NCBI GenBank assembly: GCA_938004065.1
Contig: CALKWM010000013.1
Span: 2,457-66,456, forward strand
DNA length: 64,000 nt
Direction: 5' to 3'
Source of the DNA: an uncultured bacterium
GTDB lineage: Bacteria; Patescibacteriota; JAHJAL01
Position numbers and translations under genes: made by a program. Position 1 is the stretch's first letter. Each line of letters begins with the position of its first letter. Below, in pieces: positions 37,458 to 64,000 of the stretch. The notes under the pieces are model-generated. The model saw nothing but the letters and a program-made list of their open reading frames with translations, ran no database searches and was not told the origin of the DNA.

Positions 37458-37493
37458 GGTGAGAAGTAAGAAATAAGAAGTAAGAAGTAAGAA

Positions 37494-38322: not shown

Positions 38323-38333
38323 GGAAAAAATTT

Positions 38334-46961: not shown

Positions 46962-46977
46962 AATAAAAATTGATGGA

Positions 46978-47011: not shown

Positions 47012-47033
47012 CGTCAAAAAGATAGTTTAGGTT

Positions 47034-47135: not shown

Positions 47136-47169
47136 TTAAGAAAATACTTGTGAAAGGAAGTGGAGCGAA

Positions 47170-48237
47170 TTGAAAAAATTAGTTTTTTTGTTGCTAATGG
47201 TAGTTTTTTGCAGTCAAATGGTGTTAGCCGGGGACAAGGTGATTTTTATTAGATCTTCGTCAATGTTGGAAAGTCAGATAATAATTGTTGATCTGTCAGA
47301 ACAAAGTTCTCAGATATATGCAGATGGTTTTAGCAAATTTAGTTATGGTATTTCTTATGATGGTGATTGTTATGTATTGAGCCGGGATGGTAAATTGTTC
47401 TGGTATGGATTTGATGGGATGGAAAAGCAATTAACCTTTAATGCCGTGCCTTGCGAAAGCACCGGTTCGGATGCAGGTCTGTCATTAACCAGTGAGGCCA
47501 ATATAATGCCGGTTTTGAATGCCGGAGGAAAAAAGCTTGTTTTTTTGAAGACCAAATTGATTTCAAGGCCGTTAATTTATGGTGCTGTGTGTTACATGTC
47601 CGACATAAATTCGTCCTCAGTTAGTTTGCGTACCGGGGGATATACTACGCCGGTATGGTTAAATGATGGTTGTATTCTGGCGGCCAAGGTGGAACATTAT
47701 AACAAGGCGGAGTATCATTGTGAGGAGATTTATAGTGTGCCGAGGTTATTGTATTTGGATGGCCGAGATGATGTGAAAATTGCCAATGAAGAAGTGATGG
47801 CCAAGGGGCGAATATTGACAAAATTTTCATCCGAGTCTTCAAATGGAAAACAATTCTTTTTTAAAAAAGAACGATATGTTCGTATAAATGATAATGAATG
47901 GGATGAAAAATATCAGATAGTATTGATGAATGCCGGGGATCTATCTTTTGTAAAAGAATTTACAGGGGCGACTGATGGGGCGTGGTGTGGTGATAAGTTG
48001 ATTCTGGTCAACAAAGACGGGCGCGGAGACAATGTGGGAGTATATAACAGCAAGGGAGAGGTGATTAAAAAACATCGTTTTGGTCATTGCGGGGTACATG
48101 AAGAGATTTATGATATTGTGGGTGTAAATGGGAACAAGATATACATCCATGATGGTGGGGATCATATGTATGTTTTTGATGTGGAAAAAGGGAAAGAAGA
48201 AGTGATTAACCTCTATGGGTATTATATGGGGAGGTAA
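47170..48237 (+). CDS. Secreted hypothetical protein (signal peptide); apparent TTG start.
   Basis: Signal peptide MKKLVFLLLMVVFCSQMVLA. SD-like GGAAGTGGAG upstream. 355 aa. Confidence 0.5.
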   Translation: MKKLVFLLLMVVFCSQMVLAGDKVIFIRSSSMLESQIIIVDLSEQSSQIYADGFSKFSYGISYDGDCYVLSRDGKLFWYGFDGMEKQLTFNAVPCESTGSDAGLSLTSEANIMPVLNAGGKKLVFLKTKLISRPLIYGAVCYMSDINSSSVSLRTGGYTTPVWLNDGCILAAKVEHYNKAEYHCEEIYSVPRLLYLDGRDDVKIANEEVMAKGRILTKFSSESSNGKQFFFKKERYVRINDNEWDEKYQIVLMNAGDLSFVKEFTGATDGAWCGDKLILVNKDGRGDNVGVYNSKGEVIKKHRFGHCGVHEEIYDIVGVNGNKIYIHDGGDHMYVFDVEKGKEEVINLYGYYMGR

Positions 48238-49863: not shown

Positions 49864-52800
49864 AATCCGACCATCCTTCTCCTTCCTCCCAGTTTGCTTT
49901 TTTGGTTATGCTATTTATGGTAGGATCAAAAAATTTATCGATGGGTGTAGGTTCATTCGGTCCGTTGTAACCTAGTTGTTGATAACAACCCGAGTTATTA
50001 ATTATTAGATTTTTTACCCCGTCTATTTCTTGGTAACTTTTGATCGTGACATAATGACCGGAAAAACCGCCAATACCAATATTATAATAATAGTATGTAC
50101 CAACTACTACTGGTATGCCTTGTTTGGCAAGGTTAATTATTTCCTGTTTGGTGGCACCTCGATGAATACAGCTTTGTTTGTCTTGTGGGATGTGTTTTTT
50201 CATTTGTTTTTCAAGATAATCCATGTTGGTAGATTGCGATAGTGGTCTGACGCATTTTGATGAATCATTACAAGTGTAGTCATCATAAAATGATCTTTCT
50301 CCGAAACTAGTGGCAAAACCTTGTGATTGCAATAACATAAGCAAGGCAGTAGGTCCGCAACCATCATCAGTGGTTTGACAGTAGTGAGGCATTTCTCCTG
50401 GTGTAACTACAGTAGGTGTAGTGCTGGGTGTGCTACATTGTTCGGAAGTAGTTTGTAAATAGGGGTATGGGTCTTGGAAATCGGGTAAATCTATACTACA
50501 TCCATCTGGATTTGCATTTAAAGGTCGCTCAAAGTGCATCATACAACATGGACCAATATCGTCTACTGTTGCTATTTGTTGTCCGGCTCTTATTTTTGTG
50601 CCTTGAGTGATGAAAGGTTCAGTGTTTACTTCACCATAACCGTTAAATGAACCATCGGCGTCGTTTTTAACCATAATGTAGTCTTTGCCACAATAGAAAT
50701 TTTCTTTTACATATTCTACTGTTCCGGATTCAATAGCTATTACTGGCCAACTAGCACCGGTTTGACCGCAATTGTTAGGTCCAGGACCAGCTTCTCCAAC
50801 AATAAGATCAAAACCTGCGTGTGCTCTAGAGACAGGACAATCGCCTTGAGGCCGAGATGCTTTGAAGTGTCTTGGTCCATTTGGAGCTCCTTTGTTTCCG
50901 TACTCGAGAGTAGCTTCTTTGCCATCGGCGCCAATAATTGGCCAGCATCTGCCACCGGGAGGAACATCGGAAATTGTTTGCGTTTGTTCTTGACATTTTT
51001 TAATACAGTCATCAATTTCTTGTTGGGTGTATCCCGGAAAAGATCCACCATTATTACCAGTTGAGCCGGTTGTGCCACCTTGGCCACCGCAGATTTCGGA
51101 GTCGGAACCAATAATATTGAATTGTTTTTTGGCGGTAATAACTCGATTGTATGATTCTTCAATCCTATTTTTTAGTGCTTCATTTTCTCTGGCTTTGTTA
51201 GCGATGTTAGTTATTACTTCGTTTATAGTTCCGGATGTTGCAGAAACAAGCATAATGATATCATTTCCGGCATTGATAGCTTTTTCGACTCTATCTGTGG
51301 TGGAATCGTTGGTTGATAGTGATGCGCCAACAGCGTTCAAGTCGTCGGTGATTATCAGTCCGTTAAAACCATTTCGGGCTTTGTCAACAATTTCTTTGGT
51401 ATAGGCAGCGTTTTCGGAAGAAATTTTGGTATAGGTAATACTATTCATCATGATAGCTACTTTATTTCCATATTTTTGTTTTAAATCATCGAATGGTTTT
51501 ATATATTGATAAGGATCTTCACTAGATGTGCCTTTTTCATAATCGGTGTGAGCACTTGCCGGATAGCCAGGAAAATGTTTAAGTGTGGGAATAACACTAG
51601 CGAGAATCAAGCCATCAATGTAATTTGATGCTTCAGTAGTAATATCACCATCAAAAGTACGACCGTCAGCACTAATTGGACTGTCGCTTAGGTTTGGGTC
51701 TACTACTGGTGCAAGATTCATATTGATACCGAAAGATTTCATATCCTTACCGCATGATGTCATAGATGTTTTTGGATCAGACATATTGGCGGCTGATGGC
51801 AAGTTGGAGCAATTGTTTGCGGTGCTGGTATATTTAAGTCTGTTGACTACTCCACCTTCGATGTCGCTGGCGATAATTGGTTTTATTTTCAATGTGTTGG
51901 TAATTGTTTTTATTTTAGCAAGACTATTATCTTCACTGCCTCCCATCATTATGATACTACCAATTTTCAGTTTTTCTAATTCATCAGTAGTAAAATTGGC
52001 TTCGTTGACCATAAGTATTTGGCCAATTTTTTCTTCCAAGCTTAGTTCTTTACATTTCTGGCTGGATCCTTCGATGTAAAATAGTTTCCCTGGATCTTGT
52101 GAGTGGACGATATTGGTCATATATTTGGTAAAATCAGTAATTTCATATTTAGCCATTTCACCACTTGAGCCGTTATTTTTTACACCAGTATATACAGTAC
52201 CGTGATCTTCGTAGGGATCGTTGACAATAAAGGAAGTAATTTGACCAGAGGAATCTTTGGTATAACCGATAATTAGAACTATGTGGCCGTAATTGCCATC
52301 GGTATTTGATGTGCGCATGAATCCGGTAAATGCGACCATGGGAGTACCTTGGTCAATCAGGCCGGTTATTTTAGGAATGCTATTGGTGTCATATTTGAAT
52401 TCCGTTACAGTTGATCCTGTTTCGGTTGTAGCAAAACTTTGAATAGTACCTGATCCATTTCTTGTAGCGTCTTTACCGTTTAATGTTTTGTTTTGTTCAA
52501 TAGTACTCCAGACCGGTTCGATGGTGGTGTAGTAGGTGCCGGGGTCAATATCTGTACTATTGGCATAATTGACAGCCATAACTGTTGAAACGAATCCGCA
52601 ACCGGCACTTTCAATGGTGTCGACACTGTCTAGTTTGACATTGGGATATTGTTTTTGATTATAATGTTTGATTCCGGAAATATAAGTTTTGTCGTCATTA
52701 GATGTGGGACCGGAGGAGATGTCTTGGCATTGCATGTTTTCAAAAATTGCTTTTGCATAATTAACTCTTTTGGTAAATGGTGTTAGGTCGTCTGAGCATT

Positions 52801-53485
52801 CAAAAAGATCGTGAAAAGTACCAACCAAATCTTCAATTTTTGTATATTCTGGAAAAAAACTATACAAGCTTTTATATCCTTCTTCATAATATTTTTCCCC
52901 ATAAATGCTTTCTCTTGGGATAAGATAGACATTGCATAAAGCAGGTCCGGTGAATTCTTTCCAAAAAAATTCAAGTTGAGCTTGAAGGCTGTCGATAGGT
53001 TGATTGGTTGATTCGCAATAAGAAGATAAGGCATCGTGTCTGCTTCCATACCATTGGGCCAATCCGTATGCTCCGCTATCTGGGTTGAGAGCTGTAGGAG
53101 AAAATTGGGATTCCTGTTGGAAATTACCTGCTATTGCTGCAGCTTGAGTTTTGTTGAGTCCTTTGGATGTAAGAAAACTTATAACAGTGTTGATGTTTTT
53201 TCTTTGGGATTCGTCAATTGAATTACCTGTATAGGTGCAGGGGCCGGTAGATGAACCTCTAGGTCCGTATGTTTCTAGCAAACAATCCTCAACGCATTTT
53301 CGATCGGTGGGCGAAAGTAAACTATCCGGAGTCAAGCCGGTCATGCCTAACATGGCCATCATGAGAGGTAGTAGAAACATTAATATACCGCAACAGCAAA
53401 GGGTGCAGCAAATATAGAGTATATAGCGCAAGGGGTCGTCCTGGAGATTTGTTTCGTCAGGGATTTGTGGGGTTGGCTCGGACAT
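49841..53485 (-). CDS. Giant membrane-anchored multidomain peptidoglycan hydrolase, in the position of a T4SS VirB1/PrgK/CwlT-type lysin.
   Basis: The start was set at MSEPTPQ (53485) rather than the track start 53533. From N- to C-terminus:
- TM segment RYILYICCTLCCCGILMFLLPLMMAML.
- Phage-tail-lysozyme-like motif AAIAGNFQQESQFSPTA...GAYGLAQW.
- C39-like domain 1 (AGCGFVSTVM...YGHIVLIIGY...NDPYEDH).
- GH3/NagZ-like domain (LEEKIGQILMV...ASDIEGG...KHFPGY...AHTD, GLIITDDLNAVGA).
- M23/LytM-like domain (AHAGFDLIV...QQIATVDDIG...MMHFE).
- C39-like domain 2 (GCGPTALLMLLQSQG...GHYVTIKSY). Confidence 0.7.
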   Translation of the reverse strand: MSEPTPQIPDETNLQDDPLRYILYICCTLCCCGILMFLLPLMMAMLGMTGLTPDSLLSPTDRKCVEDCLLETYGPRGSSTGPCTYTGNSIDESQRKNINTVISFLTSKGLNKTQAAAIAGNFQQESQFSPTALNPDSGAYGLAQWYGSRHDALSSYCESTNQPIDSLQAQLEFFWKEFTGPALCNVYLIPRESIYGEKYYEEGYKSLYSFFPEYTKIEDLVGTFHDLFECSDDLTPFTKRVNYAKAIFENMQCQDISSGPTSNDDKTYISGIKHYNQKQYPNVKLDSVDTIESAGCGFVSTVMAVNYANSTDIDPGTYYTTIEPVWSTIEQNKTLNGKDATRNGSGTIQSFATTETGSTVTEFKYDTNSIPKITGLIDQGTPMVAFTGFMRTSNTDGNYGHIVLIIGYTKDSSGQITSFIVNDPYEDHGTVYTGVKNNGSSGEMAKYEITDFTKYMTNIVHSQDPGKLFYIEGSSQKCKELSLEEKIGQILMVNEANFTTDELEKLKIGSIIMMGGSEDNSLAKIKTITNTLKIKPIIASDIEGGVVNRLKYTSTANNCSNLPSAANMSDPKTSMTSCGKDMKSFGINMNLAPVVDPNLSDSPISADGRTFDGDITTEASNYIDGLILASVIPTLKHFPGYPASAHTDYEKGTSSEDPYQYIKPFDDLKQKYGNKVAIMMNSITYTKISSENAAYTKEIVDKARNGFNGLIITDDLNAVGASLSTNDSTTDRVEKAINAGNDIIMLVSATSGTINEVITNIANKARENEALKNRIEESYNRVITAKKQFNIIGSDSEICGGQGGTTGSTGNNGGSFPGYTQQEIDDCIKKCQEQTQTISDVPPGGRCWPIIGADGKEATLEYGNKGAPNGPRHFKASRPQGDCPVSRAHAGFDLIVGEAGPGPNNCGQTGASWPVIAIESGTVEYVKENFYCGKDYIMVKNDADGSFNGYGEVNTEPFITQGTKIRAGQQIATVDDIGPCCMMHFERPLNANPDGCSIDLPDFQDPYPYLQTTSEQCSTPSTTPTVVTPGEMPHYCQTTDDGCGPTALLMLLQSQGFATSFGERSFYDDYTCNDSSKCVRPLSQSTNMDYLEKQMKKHIPQDKQSCIHRGATKQEIINLAKQGIPVVVGTYYYYNIGIGGFSGHYVTIKSYQEIDGVKNLIINNSGCYQQLGYNGPNEPTPIDKFFDPTINSITKKANWEEGEGWSDFVLYYKC

Positions 53486-53514
53486 GGTAAGAAATAAGAA
53501 GTAAGAAATAAGAA

Positions 53515-53593
53515 GTATGCGCCCAAGGCGCACCAGATGACTGGAAAAGTAATAAGTATGCGCCCAAGGCGCACCAGATGACTGGAAAAGTAA
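53515..53593 (+). promoter_or_regulatory. Two tandem copies of the 38-bp double-dyad element (53515-53552 and 53556-53593), 29 nt upstream of the lysin ATG, preceded by AAATAAG/AAGTAAG repeats.
   Basis: GTATGCGCCCAAGGCGCACCAGATGACTGGAAAAGTAA x2, separated by TAA. Confidence 0.6.
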
Positions 53594-53900: not shown

Positions 53901-55751
53901 TTACGCGCCCAGGGAGTTTTTGAGGGCCAAAACTTCTTCCGGGTTACTGGTAATGATGCGGTTTTCGGTGTAGGAGGCGACGATTTTGATTAAGACATGG
54001 TTCATACCGGCAAAGAAAATTCCTTCACCAACATTGGCTTCCAGAAGTGCCATTTTTTCACCGTCGGTTAGATGGAAAGTTTTGGCAATTAGGTCGATGG
54101 AGGCGGGGGATTGTTTGAGTAGGATTTGCATTGCTGAGTTGGAGATGATGGCTTTACCGTATTTTGATCCCAAGAAGTCTTCGACATCTTGGGAGATGGT
54201 GGTGATACCCAGGTAGTATTTACGAGATCGTTTGGTCAAGTTATGCAAAAATTTAGCGGAATCTTCGTATTGCATCAAGTTCCAGGCCTCGTCGATGATC
54301 ATGATACGCCTTTTGAGTTTGGTGCGGATTTTGGTCCAGATGAAGTGAGTGATAACAAACATGGCCACCGGACGCAAAGATTCTTCCAAATCACGGACGG
54401 AAAAGACGATCATGTTGGTGGTCAGGTCGATATTGGTGTGGTGGTTTAATAGTCCGGCGTAGGAGCCCTCGGTGTATTTTTGCAGACGACGGGCCATGGA
54501 TTCGGATCCCTGCATATTGGCCAGAACGTTTTGCAGGTCTGAGAGCAAAGGTGGGGGATTTTTATGCGAGACGGGATCTTCGGTAATGTCTTTGAGAGCG
54601 TATGCTTCCTTGATAGCGCGATCCATGATGGCTGATTCTTCGGGTGTTAATTGACCCAACATGATGCTCATCAGAGCTCCCAGTTCAACCACACTGGAAC
54701 GCAGGGCGTTTTCTTCTTCGCCTTCACTGGTTTCCGGTAAGTCGAGAGGATTGATTTTCTTTTCGGAATTGAGATTGATTGGGATGTAAGTGCCACCGAC
54801 GGCTTCACATAGGGTTTGGTATTCGTTTTCCGGATCGATAATAATGATGTCAGTTCCCAACATCAGGTAGCGTAAGCATTCCAGTTTGACGGTGTAACTT
54901 TTACCGGCACCGGAAGTGGCAAAGATGGTACAGTTGGGGTTGGCCAGATCGAAGCGGTCAAAAATTACCAGAGATTGATTGTGGCCGTTAAATCCGTAGA
55001 AAATGCCGTTGTCACTGGTTAGGTCAACGGAGGTGAAAGGAAATGTGGTGGAGATGGCGTCAGTATCCAAGTTGCGGGTGATGTACAATTCGTCATTGGC
55101 TAGAGGTAGGGTGGAATTAAAACCTTGTTCTTGTTGAAGAATGGCATTTTTAGTATAGATCAGGGCGCCACCGAGGGTGGTTTCCAAGTGATCGACATTG
55201 GCTTTGAGTTCTTTTTCACTGTCGGCGTAAACGGTAAAATACATGCCAAATAGAAAAAGTTTTTCGCTGCCTTGTTGGATACGATAGCGTAGTTCTTCCG
55301 CGTCCTGGATAGCGGTTTCCAGTTTGGGGTCGGATACTTCACCTTTTTCGCGATTGATGGCGTATGTGGCTTGCATGCGGCCGACTCGGTTGCGGAGGTC
55401 TTCCAATACGGCTTTACTTTCCTGTGGATAGATATACATACTGATGTCCATGGTGGCGTCGTAGGCGATGATGGGGGAGAGCCAGTTGGTGGTTAAAAAG
55501 CGGGGATAGGTAAAAACAAACAGAGTTTGCACGTAGCTGTTGTTGATGATGATGTAGTTGGGATTGATACGGAAAGCGCTGGGAGCGAGGATATCTTTGA
55601 GAGTGGACATACCTTCTTCGAAGACGGCACGAGCTTCTTGCAGATGTTTTTTTTCCGTTTCCAGACGTTTTTTCTCCTCCAAAGCTTTGAGTTTTTCCGG
55701 ATCTTTGGGTTTACGTTGGAAGAGGTTTTTGATTTTATCGGTTATGGCCAT
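53901..55751 (-). CDS. VirB4/TrbE/TraE-family conjugative (T4SS) ATPase, Gram-positive-like type.
   Basis: 616 aa. N-terminal region with YPRFLTTNWLSPIIAYDATMDISMYIYP. Walker A FATSGAGKSYTVK, Walker B IMIIDEAWNLM, and a C-terminal DUF87/AAA_10-like region. Confidence 0.75.
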   Translation of the reverse strand: MAITDKIKNLFQRKPKDPEKLKALEEKKRLETEKKHLQEARAVFEEGMSTLKDILAPSAFRINPNYIIINNSYVQTLFVFTYPRFLTTNWLSPIIAYDATMDISMYIYPQESKAVLEDLRNRVGRMQATYAINREKGEVSDPKLETAIQDAEELRYRIQQGSEKLFLFGMYFTVYADSEKELKANVDHLETTLGGALIYTKNAILQQEQGFNSTLPLANDELYITRNLDTDAISTTFPFTSVDLTSDNGIFYGFNGHNQSLVIFDRFDLANPNCTIFATSGAGKSYTVKLECLRYLMLGTDIIIIDPENEYQTLCEAVGGTYIPINLNSEKKINPLDLPETSEGEEENALRSSVVELGALMSIMLGQLTPEESAIMDRAIKEAYALKDITEDPVSHKNPPPLLSDLQNVLANMQGSESMARRLQKYTEGSYAGLLNHHTNIDLTTNMIVFSVRDLEESLRPVAMFVITHFIWTKIRTKLKRRIMIIDEAWNLMQYEDSAKFLHNLTKRSRKYYLGITTISQDVEDFLGSKYGKAIISNSAMQILLKQSPASIDLIAKTFHLTDGEKMALLEANVGEGIFFAGMNHVLIKIVASYTENRIITSNPEEVLALKNSLGA

Positions 55752-55800
55752 GGGTGGAAAGAATTAATATCTAATGTGAATAATAATTTGTGAAAATAAA

Positions 55801-55838
55801 CAAAGTATCAAGTAACAAGTATCAAGTAACAAGTATTT
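55801..55838. repeat. (CAAGTAT CAAGTAA)x2-3 heptamer array just 5' of the VirB4-like gene.
   Basis: CAAAGTATCAAGTAACAAGTATCAAGTAACAAGTATTT. Confidence 0.8.
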
Positions 55839-55869
55839 TGAGTCCCTCGACTTACGCTCGGGACGATAT

Positions 55870-56562
55870 TTATTCACTCGTTCCGGAGATGACGTCAGAG
55901 GTTAGGGATTCGATTTTGAAAAGTTTTTGATGGCGGGAGGTGGTGGGATTGAAGTGGTTGTACATCAATTCGGTGATTTCCTGGGTGGATAGGGTAACGG
56001 CACTAAGTCCCATCGATCCCAATCCGTTGGTGATAACGTTGATGCGCTCGGAGATTTTTTCTTTGGCCAGTTGAAAATCTTTTTCTTTGACGATAATTTC
56101 GTTGGATGATGGAAAAAGTTTTTGCCAAAACCCCTTGGTGGGAGCGGATGGGGGATAATAGGAAACTACCAGGAAGAATTTTTTTTCCATGACATTGGTA
56201 ACTTCCAGCAGACGCTGGATAAAGGCGATGTATTCTTGCATTTGAATTTTCAAGAGATCGTTTTGCTGTTTGATTTCCAAATCTTTGAGTTTGGAGATGT
56301 AGTCGGTTAAATCCAGTTTTTTGGATTGGACTATTATCTGAACCGGAAATGCCAGTGAATTTAGAAAGTTTTGGTATTGGTAGATGATGGCGTTTTGTTC
56401 GTCATCGGATTTGAGATCGAAGTTGACACTGGAGGTTAGCAGGATGCTACGCAGACTGCCGTCTTTCATGATGACCAGACCGTCACGGATTTCTTTGAAT
56501 GGGATATAGTTTTGGGTGGAGTTGCGGGGGTTGTGGGATTTTTTTTTGGTTTTTTTCTTCAT
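55870..56562 (-). CDS. Hypothetical T4SS-associated protein of 230 aa, between the VirB3-like and VirB4-like genes.
   Basis: Basic N-terminus with no TM. The IPFKEIRDGLVIMKDGSLRSIL segment loosely resembles VirB4 N-terminal regions. The gene is tightly linked, with 118 nt to the VirB4-like start. Confidence 0.4.
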   Translation of the reverse strand: MKKKTKKKSHNPRNSTQNYIPFKEIRDGLVIMKDGSLRSILLTSSVNFDLKSDDEQNAIIYQYQNFLNSLAFPVQIIVQSKKLDLTDYISKLKDLEIKQQNDLLKIQMQEYIAFIQRLLEVTNVMEKKFFLVVSYYPPSAPTKGFWQKLFPSSNEIIVKEKDFQLAKEKISERINVITNGLGSMGLSAVTLSTQEITELMYNHFNPTTSRHQKLFKIESLTSDVISGTSE

Positions 56563-56700
56563 AAAATCTAAAATGACTAAATGATTATAATTGCAGAATT
56601 GAAATATAGTAATAATTGTCTAAATTTTGATAACCAATATTTCCTTGGAAAAAAAATATGAAATCTTCTCGTTAAATTGGATATTGATATTTGATAATTG

Positions 56701-57375
56701 TTATTTACTACGAGCTATTTCGAGCATTTTTTGTTTTTTGTCTTCTTTCTGTTTGACCGCTTCTTCGTTGACCGAGGGTTGAGCTTTCGGTTTTCTGGTA
56801 AACAGGCCGGTAATGGTTGAGGAAAGTTGTTTGAATCCGGATTGGATATTGTGGGCGATGGATTTGGTGGCTTCGGAAGTGGACGGGATGGGTTTTTTGG
56901 TTGGTGTTGAGTGTTGTTCAACATTTAATTCTTCGGCTTTGGCGCGGATGTCTTGAGGAGTCATCTGGGTGTCGAGGATAAGTGATAGTTGTTGCAGTTG
57001 AGATTTAACTTCTTCCGGATGTTTGATGGCTTCAATTTCACTTTTTTTGTCTTCTTTTTTGGCCTGGGGAGCGGTTTCAAATACGGGAGGTGGTAGTTGT
57101 AGCCACAGTAAAGTTTTAGGTTTAAATAAAAACAGGACAAAATTGGCGACAAATTTGGAAAATGGTTGTTCATTGACGGGTACAAATGCAAATGCCAGAG
57201 CCATCAGTGCCACCGGGATCGAAAGGGCGTAGAAATAGTTGTTGTATCCGACATAAATATACACTACGTATATTATACCTGATGCGAAAAGCAGGTATAA
57301 AAATTGTTCGAGGGTGAGTGGACCGATAATCTGGTCCGGCATTTTGATGTTTTGTGGGACTTTGAATTGGAGCAT
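56701..57375 (-). CDS. VirB3-like small two-TM protein (PrgI/ConD/TcpE-like) with a K/E-rich C-terminal tail.
   Basis: IGPLTLEQFLYLLFASGIIYVVYIYV (TM1) and ALSIPVALMALAFAFV (TM2), followed by a hydrophilic tail. The gene sits between the VirB6-like and VirB4-like genes, as VirB3 does in other T4SS loci. Confidence 0.45.
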   Translation of the reverse strand: MLQFKVPQNIKMPDQIIGPLTLEQFLYLLFASGIIYVVYIYVGYNNYFYALSIPVALMALAFAFVPVNEQPFSKFVANFVLFLFKPKTLLWLQLPPPVFETAPQAKKEDKKSEIEAIKHPEEVKSQLQQLSLILDTQMTPQDIRAKAEELNVEQHSTPTKKPIPSTSEATKSIAHNIQSGFKQLSSTITGLFTRKPKAQPSVNEEAVKQKEDKKQKMLEIARSK

Positions 57376-57382
57376 GGTTTGT

Positions 57383-59821
57383 TTATGTAAATATCACGAG
57401 GTCGCTTAGGTAGTCGTCTTTTTTTGTATTAGCATTGAATTCTTTCATTTTGTCAGTCATCGATTTTTTAGAGTCTTTCATGGTTTCGAGAAGTTTGGAA
57501 TCTTTACCAAAGAATTTTTCTTTGGTTTCGTTAGATGATTTGAGAATAAAATATTCCATTTGAGCATTAAGATCGTCTGCTCTTTTACCTTTAGAAATGG
57601 AGGATTTTAGTGTAGAAAAATCACCTTGAGTTTCAATATCGGCCTTTTTTGTTTTTATGTTTTGATAAACAATATATTCAGGTTCGTCTTTAGGTGTTGA
57701 TGATATTTTGCTATCAACATTTGACATATTAATATTTAACTTGGGATTTGATGCTGAATTATCGATTATTTCTTTGATTACTTTTTGTTTTGCATTATTT
57801 GCTTTTTCAAATGTATTTTGCATTTGAAGCTTGTTTAAACTGGGAAGAAAAGTACCTGATTCATCAGTTTCTAAAGCTTCGACTTTTTTGATATAGCTAT
57901 CATCAAATCCAAGGTTTCTAAGTTTACTAACCATACTGCTTTTGTTGCCGTTTTTGAGGTTTTCGCTCAGATTTTGTAAATCTAAAGATCCAACTTTATT
58001 GTTATGTACACCAATTAGATTGGAGGCATTGTTTTTGGCTTGTTTTGTAAAGTCGTCTTTAAAATGCGTTTTAAGTTCCGTCAAGTTTCTTGGGACGCCG
58101 GTAGCTTCTTTTTTATAATGTAGTTTTAGATCGTTTTGAATGTTTTGTTCAACTTTACTGGAGTCTATACCTGACTTGAGAGTTAAACCTCTTCCGGTAC
58201 CTGTTAATTCATCGTTGATACTTTCGGGAGTATAGTATCTAGACAATATATGAGAGTTAACATCTGGGTCAGAACTATCAAATTCTTTTGGTTTGGGGCC
58301 GGCCAGAAAGTCTTTGTTGTATAATAGCCAGTTATTTTCGAGAAATTTGGTGGCATCAGCATGACCGGGATGAAATTGGTTTTGGGCTCTTTGAGCTAAT
58401 TCTTTGTTCATACCGGCTAGCTCATTGAACGCATCTCCATCTCTCAATGTTTTGTCGCGGTATTTTTCAAAGTCAGGATGCTTTTGTATGTTTTTTATCA
58501 GATCGCTTGATTTTGTACCTTTGAATGGTTCGTCTGAATCTTTTGTCAACGATCTAAGAATTGAGTCTCTCAATTTGATATCTTCTTTGGTGGTTGGGTT
58601 TTGATTGAGAGTAGTTTGTAGTTGTCTGCTTTTTAGTGATGTTTCCGCTCTTTTGGAAGTTAACATTTTGTCATAAGATCTTTGACCGAGGATTTGGCCA
58701 AGTGCATTGAAATCTTTGTTCCAGCCCAATTTTTTGAAAGGTTGTATTGGGGCATGTGCAAGAGAAGATGCTCTCTCTTTCAACTGTAAAGCATTGGGGA
58801 TGTGTTTGGTGAGAGCTCCTTGCCAAAATTTCATGATCTGGCTACCGAGTCCGCCGAGCTGGAAGGGGACGATGAGAGCAGCGAGCATGATAGCGATACC
58901 GGCCAGATAGAACAGCCATTGTCGAGCAAATGTTTCCAGTCCGGAAACTATATCAGGTGCACCGGTGGTTGATTCTTCACTGGTTTGGAAAAAAGTAACC
59001 AAACGTAACAGGAAAAAAATAATGGGGGACATAAAAGCCCATTGGATAAAACCATCCATCCATTTTTGACCATAGGTGCGGGTTGGTGGAAAGAAAAATG
59101 CCAGTACTCCCAAAGGGGCGATGACGACCAGGATGTAGAGGATGATGATACGGGCTAAACTGACGATTGCCAGAGCGAGCATGACAACGGTGGGGACAAA
59201 AAGTATTAATAATGCAACGATTAAGCCCAAAATTGTGCCGGCTCCAATACCACCCATCATACTACCGATAGCCATAGCGCTCAGGAGATTTGTTACTACC
59301 GCTGTTATGGCTTTTGCTTCTGTGGTATCAATATTGGCCAAATCAACTCCGGTAATAAAAGACATCAGTTGCATGCCCAGTCCTTCACCGCTTGCGGTTG
59401 GACCGGATATCAATTCAAAAACGATAATGTCGGTAAAATCAAGAACCGCTTTACAGATGTAGAGACTGAAGTTAGCCAGCAATAATCCGGCTACCAGTGA
59501 AGGAAGGGTTTTTTTGATTTCGTATGTTTCCAGATTGAGCCGCAAGGCATTGGCGAGGGCCAGAGCCAGTAAAAAGAAAACGGCGGCGATATTGACATAG
59601 TAGATGGAACTTTCCCAACCGGAACTGATCATTTCCGAGAGCCGGACTTGGGAAGCTCCTTGCAAAAGGTAAACCGCAAGATTAGTTAAAAAGAGGACTA
59701 CACTAAGTACAACTTTGAGGGTGTCCATGAATGTCTGTGAAAGACTTTCAAGTATCGCAGTTTTAATACCGGCAACGGGCAAGATGAAAGTAATGATGGA
59801 TTGTGAAAAAATGTCTGGCAT
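57383..59821 (-). CDS. VirB6/TrbL/ConG-like polytopic membrane protein with a large hydrophilic C-terminal extension.
   Basis: Six or more TM helices in the first ~330 aa, then a ~480-aa K/D/E-rich soluble region. The gene ends 8 nt before the VirB3-like gene. Confidence 0.55.
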   Translation of the reverse strand: MPDIFSQSIITFILPVAGIKTAILESLSQTFMDTLKVVLSVVLFLTNLAVYLLQGASQVRLSEMISSGWESSIYYVNIAAVFFLLALALANALRLNLETYEIKKTLPSLVAGLLLANFSLYICKAVLDFTDIIVFELISGPTASGEGLGMQLMSFITGVDLANIDTTEAKAITAVVTNLLSAMAIGSMMGGIGAGTILGLIVALLILFVPTVVMLALAIVSLARIIILYILVVIAPLGVLAFFFPPTRTYGQKWMDGFIQWAFMSPIIFFLLRLVTFFQTSEESTTGAPDIVSGLETFARQWLFYLAGIAIMLAALIVPFQLGGLGSQIMKFWQGALTKHIPNALQLKERASSLAHAPIQPFKKLGWNKDFNALGQILGQRSYDKMLTSKRAETSLKSRQLQTTLNQNPTTKEDIKLRDSILRSLTKDSDEPFKGTKSSDLIKNIQKHPDFEKYRDKTLRDGDAFNELAGMNKELAQRAQNQFHPGHADATKFLENNWLLYNKDFLAGPKPKEFDSSDPDVNSHILSRYYTPESINDELTGTGRGLTLKSGIDSSKVEQNIQNDLKLHYKKEATGVPRNLTELKTHFKDDFTKQAKNNASNLIGVHNNKVGSLDLQNLSENLKNGNKSSMVSKLRNLGFDDSYIKKVEALETDESGTFLPSLNKLQMQNTFEKANNAKQKVIKEIIDNSASNPKLNINMSNVDSKISSTPKDEPEYIVYQNIKTKKADIETQGDFSTLKSSISKGKRADDLNAQMEYFILKSSNETKEKFFGKDSKLLETMKDSKKSMTDKMKEFNANTKKDDYLSDLVIFT

Positions 59822-60021
59822 GTTTGTTTATTTTTTTATCGTATTATTGTATCAAATTTGTTCCTGTTTTGTCAAGGTTTTTTCTGAGTAAAATTTGGGG
59901 GGAGGAGTAATGTTACCAAAATTTATCGGTGCTAGTAAATGGTTTTTTTTAGAACGTTTTTATGACATGAAAAAACTACCAGAAATAAGTGGTAGTTTTT
60001 TGTTGAAAGTTGATTATCAGA

Positions 60022-60366
60022 CTATGCTTTGCCCGTTTGCAAGAAAGTGATGGTGAATTCAATGATCATATATGCAAGCATAATTACGATTAATCCAATA
60101 ACAGACCAGGTGATGGTGGAAACCGCTTGTTTGGAATTTTCCGGATTGCCCATGGAAGTGATGTATTGATACCCGCCATAGACGATATAGGCGATGGCGA
60201 TCAGTCCGGCCAGACCGGTCAGGGTAATGGCAAACAGATTGATAATTCCCCAAACATCGGTGATGTTGGCGTGGTTTTTGAAGGGATTGAGGCTGTCAAA
60301 ATAACTTTCCGAAGAGAGTTGGTATTCTGCCATCAGATAGATAAAACGGCCGGTGATTGGATTCAT
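60022..60366 (-). CDS. VirB2/TrbC-like pilin paralog 1.
   Basis: 114 aa with two hydrophobic helices flanking the YGGYQYITSMGNPENSKQAVSTITWSVIGLIVI core shared by all seven paralogs. Confidence 0.6.
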   Translation of the reverse strand: MNPITGRFIYLMAEYQLSSESYFDSLNPFKNHANITDVWGIINLFAITLTGLAGLIAIAYIVYGGYQYITSMGNPENSKQAVSTITWSVIGLIVIMLAYMIIEFTITFLQTGKA

Positions 60367-60390
60367 TTACTTTTTTAGATAAAAAGAAAA

Positions 60391-60756
60391 TTATTTTATG
60401 GTTGGATCAACACCGAGGATGTTTTTCTGGACGGTGTAAACGATAGCGAAGGCGGCAAAGATGATGATCAAACCGATAACAGCGTTTAGCAAAGTGGAAG
60501 TGGCTTTTTTGGTTTGTTCCTCATTGCCTTGGGCGGTGATGTAGCTGAAACCACCGATGATCAAAAATACTACCGCGACTAGTCCGGAGATACCCAAGAC
60601 GTAGTTTAAAATCGTGATTATTAATTGTTCGACTTCTTGTTCCTGAGGAGTGTTGGTTGGTCTTTCTAGGGTTTCGGCAAAAGTGATGCCGTAGAGCATT
60701 ACGGTTGAGCCGAGAGCAGAGACTGCCGTAATCGCCTTTTTTACAGTTTTTTTCAT
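60391..60756 (-). CDS. VirB2/TrbC-like pilin paralog 2, the only paralog in the array with a classical Sec signal peptide and a strong SD.
   Basis: The start MKKTVKKAITAVSALGSTVMLYGITFA-ETL is signal-peptide-like and is preceded by AAGGAGA. Core IGGFSYITAQGNEEQTKKATSTLLNAVIGLIIIFAAFAIV. The ORF-track start at 60909 lies in the repeats and is rejected. Confidence 0.65.
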   Translation of the reverse strand: MKKTVKKAITAVSALGSTVMLYGITFAETLERPTNTPQEQEVEQLIITILNYVLGISGLVAVVFLIIGGFSYITAQGNEEQTKKATSTLLNAVIGLIIIFAAFAIVYTVQKNILGVDPTIK

Positions 60757-60766
60757 TTTTTTCTCC

Positions 60767-61095
60767 TTAAAAATAATATATTTTAATAAATAATAAGTAA
60801 TAAGCAATATGCAATAAGCAATATGCAAGAAGCAAGAAGTAATATGCAATATGCAAGAAACAAGAAGCAAGAAGCAAGAAGCAAGAAGTAAGAAAGTATC
60901 AAGGATCAATATTCAATATCCAATATCCAATAAGCAATATGCAAGAAACAATAAGCAAGAGACAAGAAGCAAGAAGCAAGAAGCAAGAAAGTATCAGGGG
61001 TCAATATCCAATATCCAATATCCAAGAAGCAATATGCAATAAGCAAGAAACAAGAAGTATGCGTCCAAGGTGCACCAGATGACTGGAGAAGCAAG
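60767..61095. repeat. Heptamer-periodic SSR spacer between pilin paralogs 2 and 3, containing a diverged copy of the 38-bp element at 61057-61094.
   Basis: Units AATAAGC, AATATGC, AAGAAGC (x3 runs), ATATCCA and AAGAAAC. The element variant is GTATGCGTCCAAGGTGCACCAGATGACTGGAGAAGCAA. Confidence 0.85.
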
Positions 61096-61120
61096 AAAGT
61101 ATTAATATTATTGCATGTTG

Positions 61121-61429
61121 TTAACTAAACAGTACATTAGTAAATAGAGTGTTTACTATAGCATATGATGCGAAAACAATCAAGAGGCCGATGATGGCAT
61201 AGGTAAGAGTCTGAACGGCTTTTTTGCTAGCTTCGTCATTGCCGGCGGAGGTGATGTATTGGTATCCGCCGTAAATTATGAAAATGATAGCGATAATACC
61301 GGCCAAATCGATAGCATAGGTGGCGATGATGAGGATTAGATCAGAAATTTCACCGCCTCCCAAAGGGTCGAGTGAGTTTTCGGGACTGGCGACAGCGAGG
61401 GAAGAGAAAAATTTGGTAATTAAGTTCAT
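61121..61429 (-). CDS. VirB2/TrbC-like pilin paralog 3.
   Basis: MNLITKFFSSLAVA leader, then ...DPLGGGEISD..., and the YGGYQYITSAGNDEASKKAVQTLTYAIIGLLIVFASYAIV core. Confidence 0.6.
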   Translation of the reverse strand: MNLITKFFSSLAVASPENSLDPLGGGEISDLILIIATYAIDLAGIIAIIFIIYGGYQYITSAGNDEASKKAVQTLTYAIIGLLIVFASYAIVNTLFTNVLFS

Positions 61430-61611
61430 AATAGATGGTAAAAAAAAGTATCAAAGATAAATAAGCAAGAAATAAGAATCAAGAAGAAAGAAGCAAGAAT
61501 CTGGTAAAAACAATAATTTTAAAAAAGAAGAATTTACAAAGAAAAATTAGTTGAATATTGCATATTGCGTATTGATTATTGCATATTGTATATTGCATAT
61601 TGCATATTTTG
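61430..61611. repeat. SSR spacer between pilin paralogs 3 and 4.
   Basis: AAATAAGCAAGAAATAAGAATCAAGAAGAAAGAAGCAAGAA, then TATTGCATATTGCGTATTGATTATTGCATATTGTATATTGCATATTGCATATT, which is the inverse orientation of the AATATGCAATA units. Confidence 0.8.
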
Positions 61612-61920
61612 TTACAGTCCGATGGCGGATTTGATGCTACGGACGATGATGATGGCGGCAAAGGCGACGATGATGCCGATGATGGCGTAGGTGAGGGTGG
61701 AAGTGGCTTGTTTGGCTTTGGTTTCGTCACCGGCGGAAGTGATATAGAGGAAACCACCATATATAACCATGATAACAGCGATAATCCCAACCAGGTCAAA
61801 AGCGTATTCAACGATACTGGTAATCAGGCCGGTAAGGTCTTTATTGCCCAAAGGGTCGGTAACTTTGTCTTCGAGTTTATCGATAGCGAGGGAAGAGAAT
61901 AGAGGTTGTAGTATATTCAT
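61612..61920 (-). CDS. VirB2/TrbC-like pilin paralog 4.
   Basis: The start MNILQPLFSSLAIDKLEDKVTDPLGNKD (ATG at 61920; the track uses an upstream TTG). Core YGGFLYITSAGDETKAKQATSTLTYAIIGIIVAFAAIIIV. Confidence 0.6.
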   Translation of the reverse strand: MNILQPLFSSLAIDKLEDKVTDPLGNKDLTGLITSIVEYAFDLVGIIAVIMVIYGGFLYITSAGDETKAKQATSTLTYAIIGIIVAFAAIIIVRSIKSAIGL

Positions 61921-62111
61921 GTTCTTATTTTGAAGATAATATTTAATAAGCAATAAGCAATATGCAAGAAAGTATCAAGGACCAATATCCAATATCCAAG
62001 AAGCAAGAAACAAGAAGCAAAAAACAAGAAAGTATCAAGGATCAATATCCAATATCAAAGAAGCAATATGCAATATGCAATATTCAATTTCTAGGTGTTT
62101 TTAATATTGTT
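61921..62111. repeat. SSR spacer between pilin paralogs 4 and 5.
   Basis: AATAAGCAATAAGCAATATGCAAGAAAGTATCAAGGACCAATATCCAATATCCAAGAAGCAAGAAACAAGAAGCAAAAAACAAGAAAGTATCAAGGATCAATATCCAATATCAAAGAAGCAATATGCAATATGCAATATTCAA. Confidence 0.85.
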
Positions 62112-62492
62112 TTATCCGCCGATGGCGGAGCGGACAGTGCGGACGATTACCAATGCACCGAGGGTGATGATGATACCAATCACAGCGTAGGTGATGATGG
62201 ATTGGCCTTGTTTGGCTTTTTGTTCATCACCAGCGGAAGTTATGTAGATAAAACCGCCATAAACGAGCATAGCGACCGCGATAATGCCGACCAGATCGAA
62301 AGCGTATTCGATAACGTTGGTGATGAGATCGGTGATGTTTTGGCCGGGGATGATGCCTTCGAGAAAATTGATACGGTTGGAAAGTTGTGATTTAACAGCT
62401 TCCGGTTCGCCACCGCCGGCAGGTGTTGATCCGGTAACCGGAGCGATGGCTTCATCGGCTAAAAATGTAAAGAATGTATAGAGGGTGTTCAT
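62112..62492 (-). CDS. VirB2/TrbC-like pilin paralog 5.
   Basis: MNTLYTFFTFLADEAIAPVTGSTPAGGGEPEAV leader region. Core YGGFIYITSAGDEQKAKQGQSIITYAVIGIIITLGALVIV. The track start at 62609 lies in the repeats and is rejected. Confidence 0.6.
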   Translation of the reverse strand: MNTLYTFFTFLADEAIAPVTGSTPAGGGEPEAVKSQLSNRINFLEGIIPGQNITDLITNVIEYAFDLVGIIAVAMLVYGGFIYITSAGDEQKAKQGQSIITYAVIGIIITLGALVIVRTVRSAIGG

Positions 62493-62771
62493 CGAAGTAA
62501 TAAGTGAAAAGTAAGAAGTAATAAGTAATATGCAATATCCAATAAGCAATATGCAAGAAGCAATAAGCAATAAGCAATAAGCAAGAAGCAAGAAAGTATC
62601 AATAACCAATATTCAATATCCAATAAGCAAGAAGCAAGAAGCAAGAAAGTATCAAGGATCAATATCCAATATCCAATAAGCAATATGCAAGAAAGTATCA
62701 AGGACCAATGTCCAGTATCCGATAAGCAATATGCAATAAAGTATCAAGGATCAACATCCAATTTTTTAAGA
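62493..62771. repeat. SSR spacer between pilin paralogs 5 and 6.
   Basis: AAGTAAT, AATATGC, AATAAGC x3, AAGAAGC, the AGTATCAAGGATCAATATCCAATATCCAATAAGCAATATGC unit, and diverged copies toward 62760. Confidence 0.85.
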
Positions 62772-63200
62772 TTATGGTCCGGTGTTGGGGTTGAGCTGGT
62801 TGAAATTTTTGGGGTCGGTGGGGATTTCGGTAAATGAAACACCGGAAAATTGGTCGAGGAAAGTGCTGACGATCAGGTATGCGCTCATGGCTACCAGAAA
62901 TCCGATGATAGCATAGGTCAAAGTGTTTTTGCCTTTTTGGACCTGGTCTTGGTTTCCGGAAGACATAACGATAGTAAATCCGCCGATCATCATATATATT
63001 ATAGCAACAAAACCGGCGATGCCGATAAGATTTTTACCCAGGTATAGCAAAAAGCCGATGGCATCGATGAAAGTAAGTTTGGAAGGTGTTTTTCCAAATT
63101 CGTAACCTAGAAATGTGAGATTCTCCGCTTCGGCGGCGTAGGCGGTAGTCAGGAGATTGAGGTGGATTGTGGATAAAAATTGATAGATTTTGGTAAACAT
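62772..63200 (-). CDS. VirB2/TrbC-like pilin paralog 6 (more diverged).
   Basis: 142 aa. Core IGGFTIVMSSGNQDQVQKGKNTLTYAIIGFLVAMSAYLIV, with an extra ~35-aa C-terminal tail. Confidence 0.55.
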   Translation of the reverse strand: MFTKIYQFLSTIHLNLLTTAYAAEAENLTFLGYEFGKTPSKLTFIDAIGFLLYLGKNLIGIAGFVAIIYMMIGGFTIVMSSGNQDQVQKGKNTLTYAIIGFLVAMSAYLIVSTFLDQFSGVSFTEIPTDPKNFNQLNPNTGP

Positions 63201-63222
63201 AAAAATTTGATTATGAAAAAAA

Positions 63223-64000
63223 TCATGTTGCCAGTCCCAGGATGCTTTGGATGGAGGCCAGGATCAGAGAGGAGAGTAGAACGAGTGCCAAACCGATGAT
63301 GGCGTAGGTAAGTCCGGTTTGGGCTTTTTTGATAGTTTCCTGGTTACCGCCGGCGGTAACCATACCGTAACCATTGATGATGATAAATATGGTGGCGATG
63401 ATACCGGCTAATCCGAGCAAGATGTTGATAATTCGATTGAAAATAGGGGCTAACATATGTAGCAGATCGGCGTTTTCGGTGGGGATGTTGAGATTGGAAA
63501 CGACAAAGTTGGGGATGTTGTAGGTGATCGGTACAGTTTCTATGTTTTCACCGGGAGGAGTTTCGCCGTTGCTACATTGTTCCTCGGTGGCGAGGGTTGT
63601 TCCGGCCGGGCAGGTCTCACCTTGGATGGATTGGCAAAATCCGGAATCCGGATCCAGACAGAGGATGGTGCCGGCAGGAGGGGTGGGATTGGCAGGGTCG
63701 GTAGGATCGGAATTGATCTTCATGGCATTGACTATTTTGATCCTGGCGGCGGAGTCGGAACCGCAAACGATGGTGTCCAAATCGGTGGGGTGATCAACGA
63801 CGGTAACCGGTAGTGTACTGCAAATATCACGCAAAGCGGGAGGGAGAAAATCAACCGCGGTTTTGAATTGGCCGTATTGGGTACCTGGATACAATTTGGT
63901 ACCATTAGCGCCGAATCCTTGATCTTTGAGCCAGGTCAGTAATTCTTGACTGGCGGTAGTGTAGGGAGGACAATCATCGGGGTTTTCCGAAGGACATTCC
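63223..64000 (-). CDS. Larger protein with a C-terminal VirB2/TrbC-like pilin domain (paralog 7); the ORF stays open to the window end, so it is 5'-partial.
   Basis: C-terminal NGYGMVTAGGNQETIKKAQTGLTYAIIGLALVLLSSLIL core. The N-terminal part is Cys/Pro/Thr-rich. The reading frame continues past 63894 (the track's TTG start) up to position 64000. Confidence 0.55.
   Translation of the reverse strand, partial: ECPSENPDDCPPYTTASQELLTWLKDQGFGANGTKLYPGTQYGQFKTAVDFLPPALRDICSTLPVTVVDHPTDLDTIVCGSDSAARIKIVNAMKINSDPTDPANPTPPAGTILCLDPDSGFCQSIQGETCPAGTTLATEEQCSNGETPPGENIETVPITYNIPNFVVSNLNIPTENADLLHMLAPIFNRIINILLGLAGIIATIFIIINGYGMVTAGGNQETIKKAQTGLTYAIIGLALVLLSSLILASIQSILGLAT

Follow-up and report, generated by a model that had tools for sequence, protein, structure and literature searches.

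A 64-kb stretch of contig CALKWM010000013.1 from an uncultured member of the Patescibacteriota, called the window here (all 64,000 nucleotides of it), encodes a compact type IV secretion system (T4SS) whose identity as a Patescibacteria-type system is, judged by its genes, almost certain. The locus is probably a chromosomal, non-conjugative T4SS typical of Patescibacteria and used for contact or exchange with a host. T4SSs and pilin arrays of this sort were already published for Patescibacteria (the candidate phyla radiation, CPR) in 2023-2025, so the novelty implied by the original prediction, which had been made from the letters of the window, does not hold. What goes beyond the published descriptions is limited to repeats linked to the pilin array, giant pilin-domain proteins and recurring binding-protein and Hsp20 neighbours.

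The T4SS genes form a row of minus-strand open reading frames (ORFs), scanned against Pfam and NCBIfam, that runs from 64000 down to 48316. A contig of GCA_036848155.1 (L001) matches the window without a difference over 11,229 bases and extends the view past base 64000; with the next 10 kb, read from this matching public contig, the analysis covers 74 kb. The Pfam and NCBIfam scans took in nearly all ORFs of at least 100 amino acids (aa) in the 64 kb and the 10 kb, while a few overlapping ORFs and three called genes of the extension have precomputed Pfam annotation only. Other L-numbers (L002, L004 and so on) denote related loci from a scan for VirB4 relatives. The parts of the system, with TM for transmembrane, are as follows.

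64124-66118 (L001 7083-9077), just outside the window: eighth pilin-domain gene, 664 aa, PF18895 25.8 bits
63223-63894 and onwards past 64000, minus strand: pilin 7, PF18895 36.2 bits
62772-63200, minus strand: pilin 6, 142 aa, two-TM hairpin, PF18895 39.1 bits
62112-62492, minus strand: pilin 5, 126 aa, PF18895 45.3 bits
61612-61920, minus strand: pilin 4, 102 aa, PF18895 49.4 bits
61121-61429, minus strand: pilin 3, 102 aa, PF18895 38.6 bits
60391-60756, minus strand: pilin 2, 121 aa, PF18895 52.6 bits
60022-60366, minus strand: pilin 1, 114 aa, PF18895 48.6 bits, NF045849 40.8 bits
59846-59875, minus strand: sigma-70-like promoter before the VirB6 gene (TTGACA, 18 nt, TG-TACAAT), from consensus matches only (11/12)
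57383-59821, minus strand: extended VirB6/TrbL-like protein, PF04610 TrbL 21.2 bits, below the gathering score of 25.9
56701-57375, minus strand: PrgI/VirB3-like protein, PF12666 34.5 bits, above the gathering score of 27
55870-56562, minus strand: TrsD-like protein, 230 aa, a free-standing VirB4 N-terminal domain, NF041427 TrsD 9e-10
53901-55751, minus strand: VirB4 ATPase, NF045971 (CD1110 family) 385 bits, above the cut-off of 325
49841-53485, minus strand: peptidoglycan hydrolase, 1214 aa, five modules, N-terminal membrane anchor
48316-49863, minus strand: exported single-TM protein, 515 aa, PF08308 PEGA 19.9 bits, below the gathering score of 20.8

The seven pilin ORFs of the window each exceed the gathering score of PF18895 T4SS_pilin (26.6 bits), at 36-53 bits, and several also match TrbC/VirB2, which bears out the claim of seven tandem VirB2/TrbC-like pilins at these positions on the minus strand. 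That claim took the array as the seven genes in view. Pilin 7 crosses the window edge (full length 296 aa, L001 9088-9978), and an eighth gene beyond it, encoding 664 aa, lies 10 bases upstream of the pilin 7 gene. The array totals eight pilin-domain genes, those for the 664- and 296-aa proteins first and then six small ones of 102-142 aa; pilin 6 begins 22 nt past pilin 7, and pilin 1 begins 24 nt past pilin 2. Seven or eight is a high number, as had been noted, but it lies inside the published range of 2-11 genes for 441 Patescibacteria pilin arrays, in which mean identity is 25% and the maximum 54% (PMC12102498).

All eight proteins share an aligned two-TM core and the loop motif GG(Y/F)xYITSxGNxE, with pairwise identities of 21-57%; pilins 4 and 5 are 57% identical in the identity matrix. 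The layout is that of VirB2/TrbC, with a leader or signal followed by two hydrophobic helices and a short loop between them, as seen in hydropathy and in AlphaFold2 (AF2) hairpins with a predicted local distance difference test (pLDDT) score of 72-92. N-termini are either MN(L/I)xxxF or Sec-type signal peptides. Pilin 2 has a classical signal peptide and a Shine-Dalgarno sequence, passes both PF04956 TrbC (32.3 bits, gathering score 27.9) and NF045849 (48.4 bits, cut-off 40), and is modelled by AF2 as a helical hairpin of helices 37-74 and 79-112. The cut-off of NF045849, a pilin-like family of a Mycoplasma integrative and conjugative element (ICE; Mbov_0395), is reached by two pilins. A Foldseek search of the PDB with the pilin model gave no hit at E<=0.001, which is uninformative because helical hairpins are not discriminating, and a metagenome scan with pilin 3 returned distant relatives only (32-50% identity). 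Pilin 5 was missed by the public gene calls, which annotate instead a 142-aa ORF on the opposite strand (61962-62390, plus) that crosses a 7-nt repeat array.

The first two proteins of the array carry large ectodomains. In pilin 7 a signal peptide and a Cys-rich ectodomain of about 200 aa precede a C-terminal VirB2-like pilin domain. The 664-aa protein starts with a signal peptide and an ectodomain of about 480 aa, followed by a VirB2-like hairpin at 525-596 (the T4SS_pilin domain being residues 531-588) and an acidic tail; in its single-sequence AF2 model only the pilin hairpin is confident, with pLDDT 84-92. An exhaustive HMMER search with this protein gave 3,177 hits, of which almost all match in the pilin domain. 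The proximal part of its ectodomain is shared by only five proteins of comparable size, and the distal 255 residues matched nothing among 1.84 billion representative proteins. A word-indexed search had returned the protein itself only, a filter effect given the 3,177 hits of the exhaustive search. Such a near-absence of ectodomain relatives would fit a host-contact surface under rapid change. Large proteins with a single pilin domain are common among the library hits, and in some hits one chain holds 3-8 matched pilin-domain stretches (for example P0036, with 8 stretches in 820 aa).

The VirB4 ORF, which exceeds the cut-off of its family as expected for the VirB4/TraE-like ATPase called at this position, also matches PF19044, AAA_10 and DUF87, and its Walker A (SGAGKS) and Walker B (MIIDEAW) motifs are intact in the translation. 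Its best match in the PDB is 4AG5, the C-terminal domain of Thermoanaerobacter VirB4 (1.8e-45), and its second-best family is NF045975, the Mycoplasma ICE VirB4 Mbov_0397. Weak matches to CedB (1e-9) and CedD (2e-8) fall far below the cut-offs of those families. The ORF covers positions 158-732 of the 752 in NF045971, that is, the remaining N-terminal region and the P-loop domain. The 230-aa protein encoded before it had been left as an unknown and can now be identified from profiles as a TrsD-like VirB4 N-terminal domain. Besides TrsD it matches positions 90-284 of 894 of the NF045975 VirB4 profile at 6e-11 and positions 1-119 of 752 of NF045971 at 8.5e-8; the TrsD and VirB4-profile matches are all below the curated cut-offs, and the precomputed annotation is PF26593 TraC-like. 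Since the TrsD-like protein covers the N-terminal part of the profile and the VirB4 ORF starts at 158, VirB4 is encoded as two proteins. In 20 other related loci, too, TrsD has an ORF of its own ahead of VirB4. The TrsD/VirB4 split being common to many relatives, the possibility of a frameshifted VirB4 pseudogene was rejected.

The PrgI/VirB3-like protein, called earlier as a two-TM VirB3-like protein, passes its Pfam threshold and has predicted TM helices at 20-44 and 46-69 and a charged C-terminal tail. The VirB6-like protein is polytopic over residues 1-330 or so and continues into a hydrophilic tail of about 480 aa. Its assignment, sub-threshold for TrbL in the window, is backed by orthologues from related loci, 8 of 11 of which match TrbL (best 1e-9). 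A profile built from these orthologues found only TrwI in the PDB (7O3V_F, the VirB6 of plasmid R388), at a marginal E of 0.011, and a PDB search with the single VirB6-like sequence found nothing. A generic promoter and terminator scan gave no enrichment over shuffles.

After VirB4 comes the giant multidomain lysin of the original prediction, now resolved into five modules. In order these are a phage-tail-type lysozyme (PF18013), C39_2, a GH3 domain whose nearest relatives are NagZ-type beta-N-acetylglucosaminidases, M23 (a weak match, at 26.9 bits against a gathering score of 28.7) and C39_2 again. With profiles for VirB6, VirB3, VirB4 and the hydrolase, the Gram-positive-style core order that had been read from the sequence is confirmed. 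In close relatives, too, the gene after VirB4 encodes a peptidoglycan hydrolase, with its modules shuffled: M23 in L004, M23 twice and a sub-threshold NlpC/P60 in L005, and C39-like and M23 in L002. Homologues of the 515-aa protein lie downstream of the hydrolase in the same three loci, and its position is that of the essential PEGA protein SEML1_0005 in Southlakia epibionticum.

The scan for VirB4 relatives, with one genome per species, found 121, and the best 80 of the 121 were kept. Contigs of these 80 are labelled Patescibacteria or 'bacterium', except for L064, labelled Gammaproteobacteria. Four relatives, at 84-90% identity, carry no label beyond "Patescibacteria group"; those that follow, at about 56% identity, bear Saccharibacteria, Berkelbacteria, Peregrinibacteria or Gracilibacteria labels. 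The synteny in CPR genomes that had been suggested as a check was found: the order pilins-VirB6-PrgI-TrsD-VirB4 recurs in L002, L004-L006, L026, L031, L050 and L053, with the pilins divergent from VirB6 in some loci that share it. Peribacteria loci have a longer VirB4 ORF and pilin genes 6-8 kb off. Pilin-domain genes occur in 54 of 81 loci, and 52 of 144 such genes are at least 250 aa by ORF length. The pilins of L004 have their best matches to different window pilins in the same order, with pilin 4 lacking a separate match, which suggests that most of the paralogues predate the species split and have been kept individually. Identity to L004 is 85% for VirB4, 73% for TrsD, 69% for PrgI, 40% for VirB6, 37-67% for the pilins and 29% for the 515-aa protein; conservation between the two loci thus drops from the cytoplasmic toward the surface parts.

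In Southlakia epibionticum ML1, Wang 2023 (PMC10633639) recognised an "apparent T4SS" (SEML1_0006-0019) that is most like Gram-positive conjugative systems. It has an essential pilin series and no recognisable coupling or relaxase proteins, and it is essential for growth on the host (PMC10633639); nearly all genes of the SEML1 cluster scored essential (PMC10633639 supplementary tables). The cluster reads as follows.

SEML1_0005: PEGA protein
SEML1_0006: PF18013 lysozyme
SEML1_0007: a further gene of the cluster
SEML1_0008: VirB4
SEML1_0009: small protein upstream of VirB4
SEML1_0010: PrgI
SEML1_0011 and SEML1_0013: two VirB6-like proteins
SEML1_0014-0019: six PF18895 pilins
SEML1_0020: Hsp20

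The window and SEML1_0005-0019 have the same gene set in the same order. Common to both are the PEGA protein, the PF18013 hydrolase, VirB4 with the small protein upstream of it, PrgI, an extended VirB6, a run of PF18895 pilins and an Hsp20 gene beside the array, and both clusters are chromosomal and without relaxase or type IV coupling protein (T4CP). They differ in that (i) the pilins are co-directional with and upstream of VirB6 in the window and divergent in S. epibionticum; (ii) the window has eight pilin-domain genes, two with large ectodomains, against six; (iii) it has one VirB6 gene, not two; (iv) its hydrolase functions are fused into one five-module protein; (v) a sugar-type binding protein heads the pilin operon and 7-nt arrays lie between pilin genes; and (vi) the locus is not beside dnaA within the window. 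More widely, Quinonero-Coronel 2025 found VirB4 in 2,417 of 3,035 Patescibacteria genomes (~80%), as a clade nested in class FATA of the mating-pair formation (MPF) systems, with TrsD, PrgI, VirB6 and VirB2-like proteins widespread (PMC12102498). Published proposals for the function are protein export, or a conduit taking up DNA or other molecules from the host (PMC10633639, PMC12102498, PMC12857230). The idea of a surface apparatus for attachment, uptake or host interaction, already put forward for the window, is supported and agrees with these papers.

Comparison with MPF-FATA systems (PrgH-PrgI-PrgJ-PrgK of pCF10, ConG-ConD-ConE-CwlT of ICEBs1, the CD1110 family of C. difficile CTn2 and TrsD of pGO1) points to the origin of the machine. 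As in these, VirB6, VirB3 and VirB4 are followed by a membrane-anchored multi-domain muramidase/peptidase; VirB4 passes the CD1110-family cut-off and PrgI its Pfam threshold, and there is a TrsD-like protein, as in the pGO1 subclass. The system probably descends from monoderm MPF-FATA conjugation machinery. Unlike those systems, the window system is chromosomal and not mobile, and no relaxase, T4CP, VirB8-like protein or PrgB-type adhesin was found in its locus. Small bitopic proteins are encoded at 44016-44471 and 37717-38397. The window also has VirB2-like pilins, which are generally absent from Gram-positive conjugation systems (PMC12102498, PMC10633639, PMC12857230).

Mycoplasma ICEs (Mbov_0395, Mbov_0397) resemble the window in having a small pilin-like protein near VirB4. 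Since the families of these elements match here, such a protein is evidently also present near VirB4 in one MPF-FATA lineage. Mycoplasma ICEs also carry a DDE transposase. Their small pilin-like proteins number one or two and do not form an array. They are mobile and carry VirD4 (CDS5), and there is no cell wall, hence no hydrolase (PMC12857230). The matches of the window's pilins and VirB4 to these families would bear on whether Patescibacteria pilins were co-opted from elsewhere, a question raised in PMC12102498. A passage of that paper also describes tandem divergent VirB2 copies in the T4SSs of Bartonella and Anaplasma, thought to vary the host-contact surface (PMC12102498). Those are diderm MPF-T effector systems with VirD4, unlike the window, where most of the paralogues are old and keep the same order between species, which suggests distinct structural roles more than rapid antigenic turnover.

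The genomic setting is that of a chromosome. Housekeeping genes of the window encode pyruvate kinase, RecA, RodZ, FtsK, RNase J, PNPase, a DHH phosphoesterase, pol III delta, PolA, leucyl aminopeptidase, uridine kinase, GlmS, a Mur ligase, FemAB, TsaD and ValRS, and the 10 kb past it encode a sugar-type binding protein, a nucleotidyl transferase, Hsp20 and an amidase. The Pfam and NCBIfam scans found no relaxase, VirD4/TcpA-type coupling protein, integrase or replication gene in the 74 kb, and no att-like repeat was seen there; nor was an oriT found in the 74 kb, where one would not be recognisable without a relaxase family. The housekeeping setting without VirD4, relaxase or integrase that had been noted for the window therefore stands, and the proposed look at the flank, which took in the 10 kb past the window, also found no relaxase or T4CP. 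FtsK alpha, gamma and 4TM domains are all present in the only FtsK-like ATPase (3644-5827), whose gamma domain marks it as the chromosomal translocase and not a coupling protein. GC content and GC skew continue through the T4SS locus without a compositional break. An origin as a prophage or ICE was considered and rejected, as there are no phage, integrase or relaxase genes and no such break.

The neighbours of the array recur. The SBP_bac_1 sugar-type binding protein gene (L001 5739-7076) lies 6 bases upstream of the 664-aa gene and heads the pilin operon, with no permease alongside; a sugar-type binding protein is also found beside the pilin arrays of L026 and L031. The Hsp20 gene (L001 3397-3819) flanks the array, as Hsp20 genes do in L026, L031, L053 and S. 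epibionticum (SEML1_0020, essential).

Background from better-studied systems suggests how such a machine could work. VirB4 of Gram-negative T4SSs takes VirB2 out of the membrane and powers the growth of the pilus; Gram-positive systems make way for their channel through the wall with a membrane-anchored muramidase/peptidase (PrgK, CwlT, TraG); and in the solved conjugative pili both pilin termini point outward. We propose that a VirB4 hexamer would dock on VirB3 and VirB6, pull two-helix pilins from the membrane and polymerise them into a filament or conduit, as in the Gram-negative systems. The hydrolase would open the cell wall, the cell's own or the host's, for passage of the structure. 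The shaft, a filament or tube through the wall, would consist of the small pilins (102-142 aa). Going by the outward termini of the solved pili, the 296- and 664-aa pilin-domain proteins, with their large fast-evolving N-terminal ectodomains, would be minor or tip subunits that contact the host. The apparatus would exchange material with a host bacterium and would not transfer its own DNA. A cell-wall-spanning pilus or conduit for host contact or exchange is the most likely function, with import of DNA or macromolecules as its main rival; a pilus or conduit mechanism as such is favoured by little more than an even chance.

Several points weigh against the proposal. The VirB6 match in the window is below the Pfam threshold, and the PDB hit that supports it is marginal. 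Scanned ORFs gave no profile match to a VirB8-like protein (PrgL/TcpC/TraM). The scan for relaxase and T4CP covers 74 kb only, and a distant copy in the genome is possible. In this organism the system is known from its genes alone, and we know of no Patescibacteria T4SS for which a pilus has yet been seen. The roles given to small and large pilins are our inference, and the large ectodomains gave no confident AF2 model, that of the 664-aa protein having pLDDT <50.

The main rival is a machine that imports DNA or macromolecules, pulling in host DNA or polymers to feed a cell unable to make nucleotides. The archaeal Ced system (Beltran et al. 2023) is reportedly a chromosomal DNA-import machine of VirB4, VirB6 and a VirB2-like pilin without relaxase or T4CP. 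The window holds this minimum set of parts, with no T4CP or relaxase nearby, and its VirB4 has the weak matches to CedB and CedD given above. PMC12102498 favours import from the host, PMC12857230 mentions uptake as well, and the sugar-type binding protein co-operonic with the pilins, and beside the arrays of L026 and L031, helps slightly. Yet the CedB and CedD scores are far below their cut-offs while the best matches are to bacterial conjugative VirB4 families; Ced lacks the pilin array, PrgI, TrsD and hydrolase, all present in the window; and no product of the locus binds or processes DNA. The direction of transport is not readable from sequence, and import differs from host contact or exchange in cargo and direction only. 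We regard it as unlikely, though worth keeping in view. Much less probable is true conjugation by a system whose coupling protein, relaxase and oriT lie elsewhere in the genome. VirD4-like genes are present in most Patescibacteria genomes, usually distant from virB4 (PMC12102498), and the best VirB4 families here (CD1110, Mycoplasma ICE) are conjugative. Against this, no relaxase, T4CP, integrase or att-like repeat occurs in the 74 kb, and the locus sits in the core chromosome without compositional break. Only 109 relaxases were found in the 3,035 Patescibacteria genomes, T4CP genes lie mostly far from virB4, and the t4cp homologue of S. epibionticum is non-essential, unlike the T4SS genes (PMC12102498).

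That the locus is a decaying, functionless remnant of an integrated conjugative element might be read from the VirB4 split over two ORFs and from the lack of a relaxase or T4CP nearby, but the split is ancestral, with separate TrsD ORFs in 20 other related loci and in S. epibionticum, all ORFs are intact with Walker motifs present, and VirB4 is 84-90% identical to its closest relatives with synteny kept; decay is thus highly improbable. A part in a type IV pilus or type II secretion-like system, working with the PilB-type (T2SSE) ATPase encoded at 35688-37457 on the same strand and 16 kb away, can be set aside almost entirely. The pilins match T4SS_pilin and TrbC and have no G/FxxxE prepilin leader, the ATPase adjoining the pilin/VirB6 core is VirB4, and unrelated genes, some on the opposite strand, lie between PilB and the T4SS.

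A large part of uncultured bacterial diversity belongs to the Patescibacteria, and the T4SS is among the few machines demonstrated to be essential to them for living on host cells. The present locus adds a complete, compact example outside the Saccharibacteria with its parts in one strand-wise row. It leaves the current picture of the Patescibacteria T4SS unchanged; the conservation gradient, the shuffled hydrolase modules and the recurring binding protein and Hsp20 can help in choosing structural or genetic targets.

Imperfect 7-nt repeats form arrays about 60-300 nt long in front of the genes of pilins 2, 3, 4 and 5. Units on the coding strand are CTTGCTT, ATTGCTT, ATTGCAT, ATTGGAT, CTTACTT and similar, and a recurring 22-nt module, TTGATCCTTGATACTTTCTTGC, has 10 copies in the window, all on the minus strand, where 0 are expected by chance. 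A second element, the 35-nt CCAGTCATCTGGTGCGCCTTGGGCGCATACTTCTT, includes a 7-bp G+C-rich hairpin and has 6 copies against 0 expected, with no Rfam match. Their positions are as follows.

60771-61064, minus strand: 7-nt array upstream of pilin 2, after the 35-nt hairpin element at 61052-61086
61442-61616, minus strand: short 7-nt array upstream of pilin 3, plus an array in inverted orientation at 61546-61616
61967-62091, minus strand: 7-nt array upstream of pilin 4
62492-62770, minus strand: 7-nt array upstream of pilin 5
261-577, 26779-26856 and 35505-35606: other intergenic 7-nt arrays in the window
7867-7901, 15827-15861, 37489-37523, 53510-53544, 53551-53585 and 61052-61086, minus strand: 35-nt hairpin element

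Arrays of the same kind also occur immediately before pyk, close to glmS and in the gap of two convergent genes, so they are genome-wide and not specific to the T4SS. They often abut start codons that have no Shine-Dalgarno sequence; comparable heptamer repeats ahead of start codons have been described in Beggiatoaceae, Cyanobacteria and Bacteroidetes (PMC4679880). The array before pyk is 291 nt long in the window, and two independent samples have 452 nt there. The difference comes to exactly 23 units (161 nt), in flanking DNA that is 99.4% identical over 1,690 bases. In relatives whose VirB4 is 85% identical, the spacers between the genes of the pilin array are short. The arrays before pilins 2-5 could be contingency elements that tune the expression of individual pilin paralogues through gain or loss of units, a reading that we consider improbable. 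Were it true, an epibiont population would carry T4SS filaments that differ in subunit composition, with fast-evolving giant pilin-domain proteins at their tips, and could so sample different host surfaces. Other CPR loci have heptamer arrays of their own. The array at 35505-35606, between two convergent genes, is a perfect (TAAGCAA)x10, and position 1 of contig DAIUKQ010000005.1 maps by coordinate offset to window base 35530, inside it; the assembly therefore appears to break at the repeat.

Genes with the 35-nt element just in front of them are rnj, tRNA-Thr, pilB and the hydrolase (two copies); the remaining copy precedes the pilin-2 repeat array. The two hydrolase copies, at 53510-53585, stand between promoter-like sites and the start codon.

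Beyond the 515-aa protein the window encodes further secreted or TM proteins. The largest is a giant secreted protein.

38334-44012, minus strand: giant secreted protein, 1892 aa, no Pfam hit

Homologues of it lie 3-4 kb downstream of VirB4, directly after the 515-aa homologue, in L004 and L005, and it is possibly an accessory surface protein. In a 466-aa protein (44477-45877), a long N-terminal region rich in Lys/Asp and in Gly/Ala is combined with a single TM helix and a C39-like peptidase domain on the outside, by which the protein is predicted to be a second wall-active enzyme near the system. Two secreted proteins without Pfam match are encoded on the plus strand at 46077-46961 and 47170-48237, in a stretch of G+C 0.32-0.34, and both genes have similar upstream sequences of about 40 nt containing GGGGGTGAAATTTAAAAAAAATGTTAAGAAAAT. 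The pair separates the 515-aa protein from the C39-like peptidase, two proteins that adjoin in L004 and L005, and by its sequence context (46077-48237) it looks like an insertion.

Rfam gave no match in the T4SS locus, and the tRNA-Thr is the sole RNA gene of the window. G+C is about 39%, with positive GC skew without a break; on the plus strand the skew is +0.1 to +0.48 throughout, though most genes lie on the minus strand, so that the coding strand is richer in C than in G.

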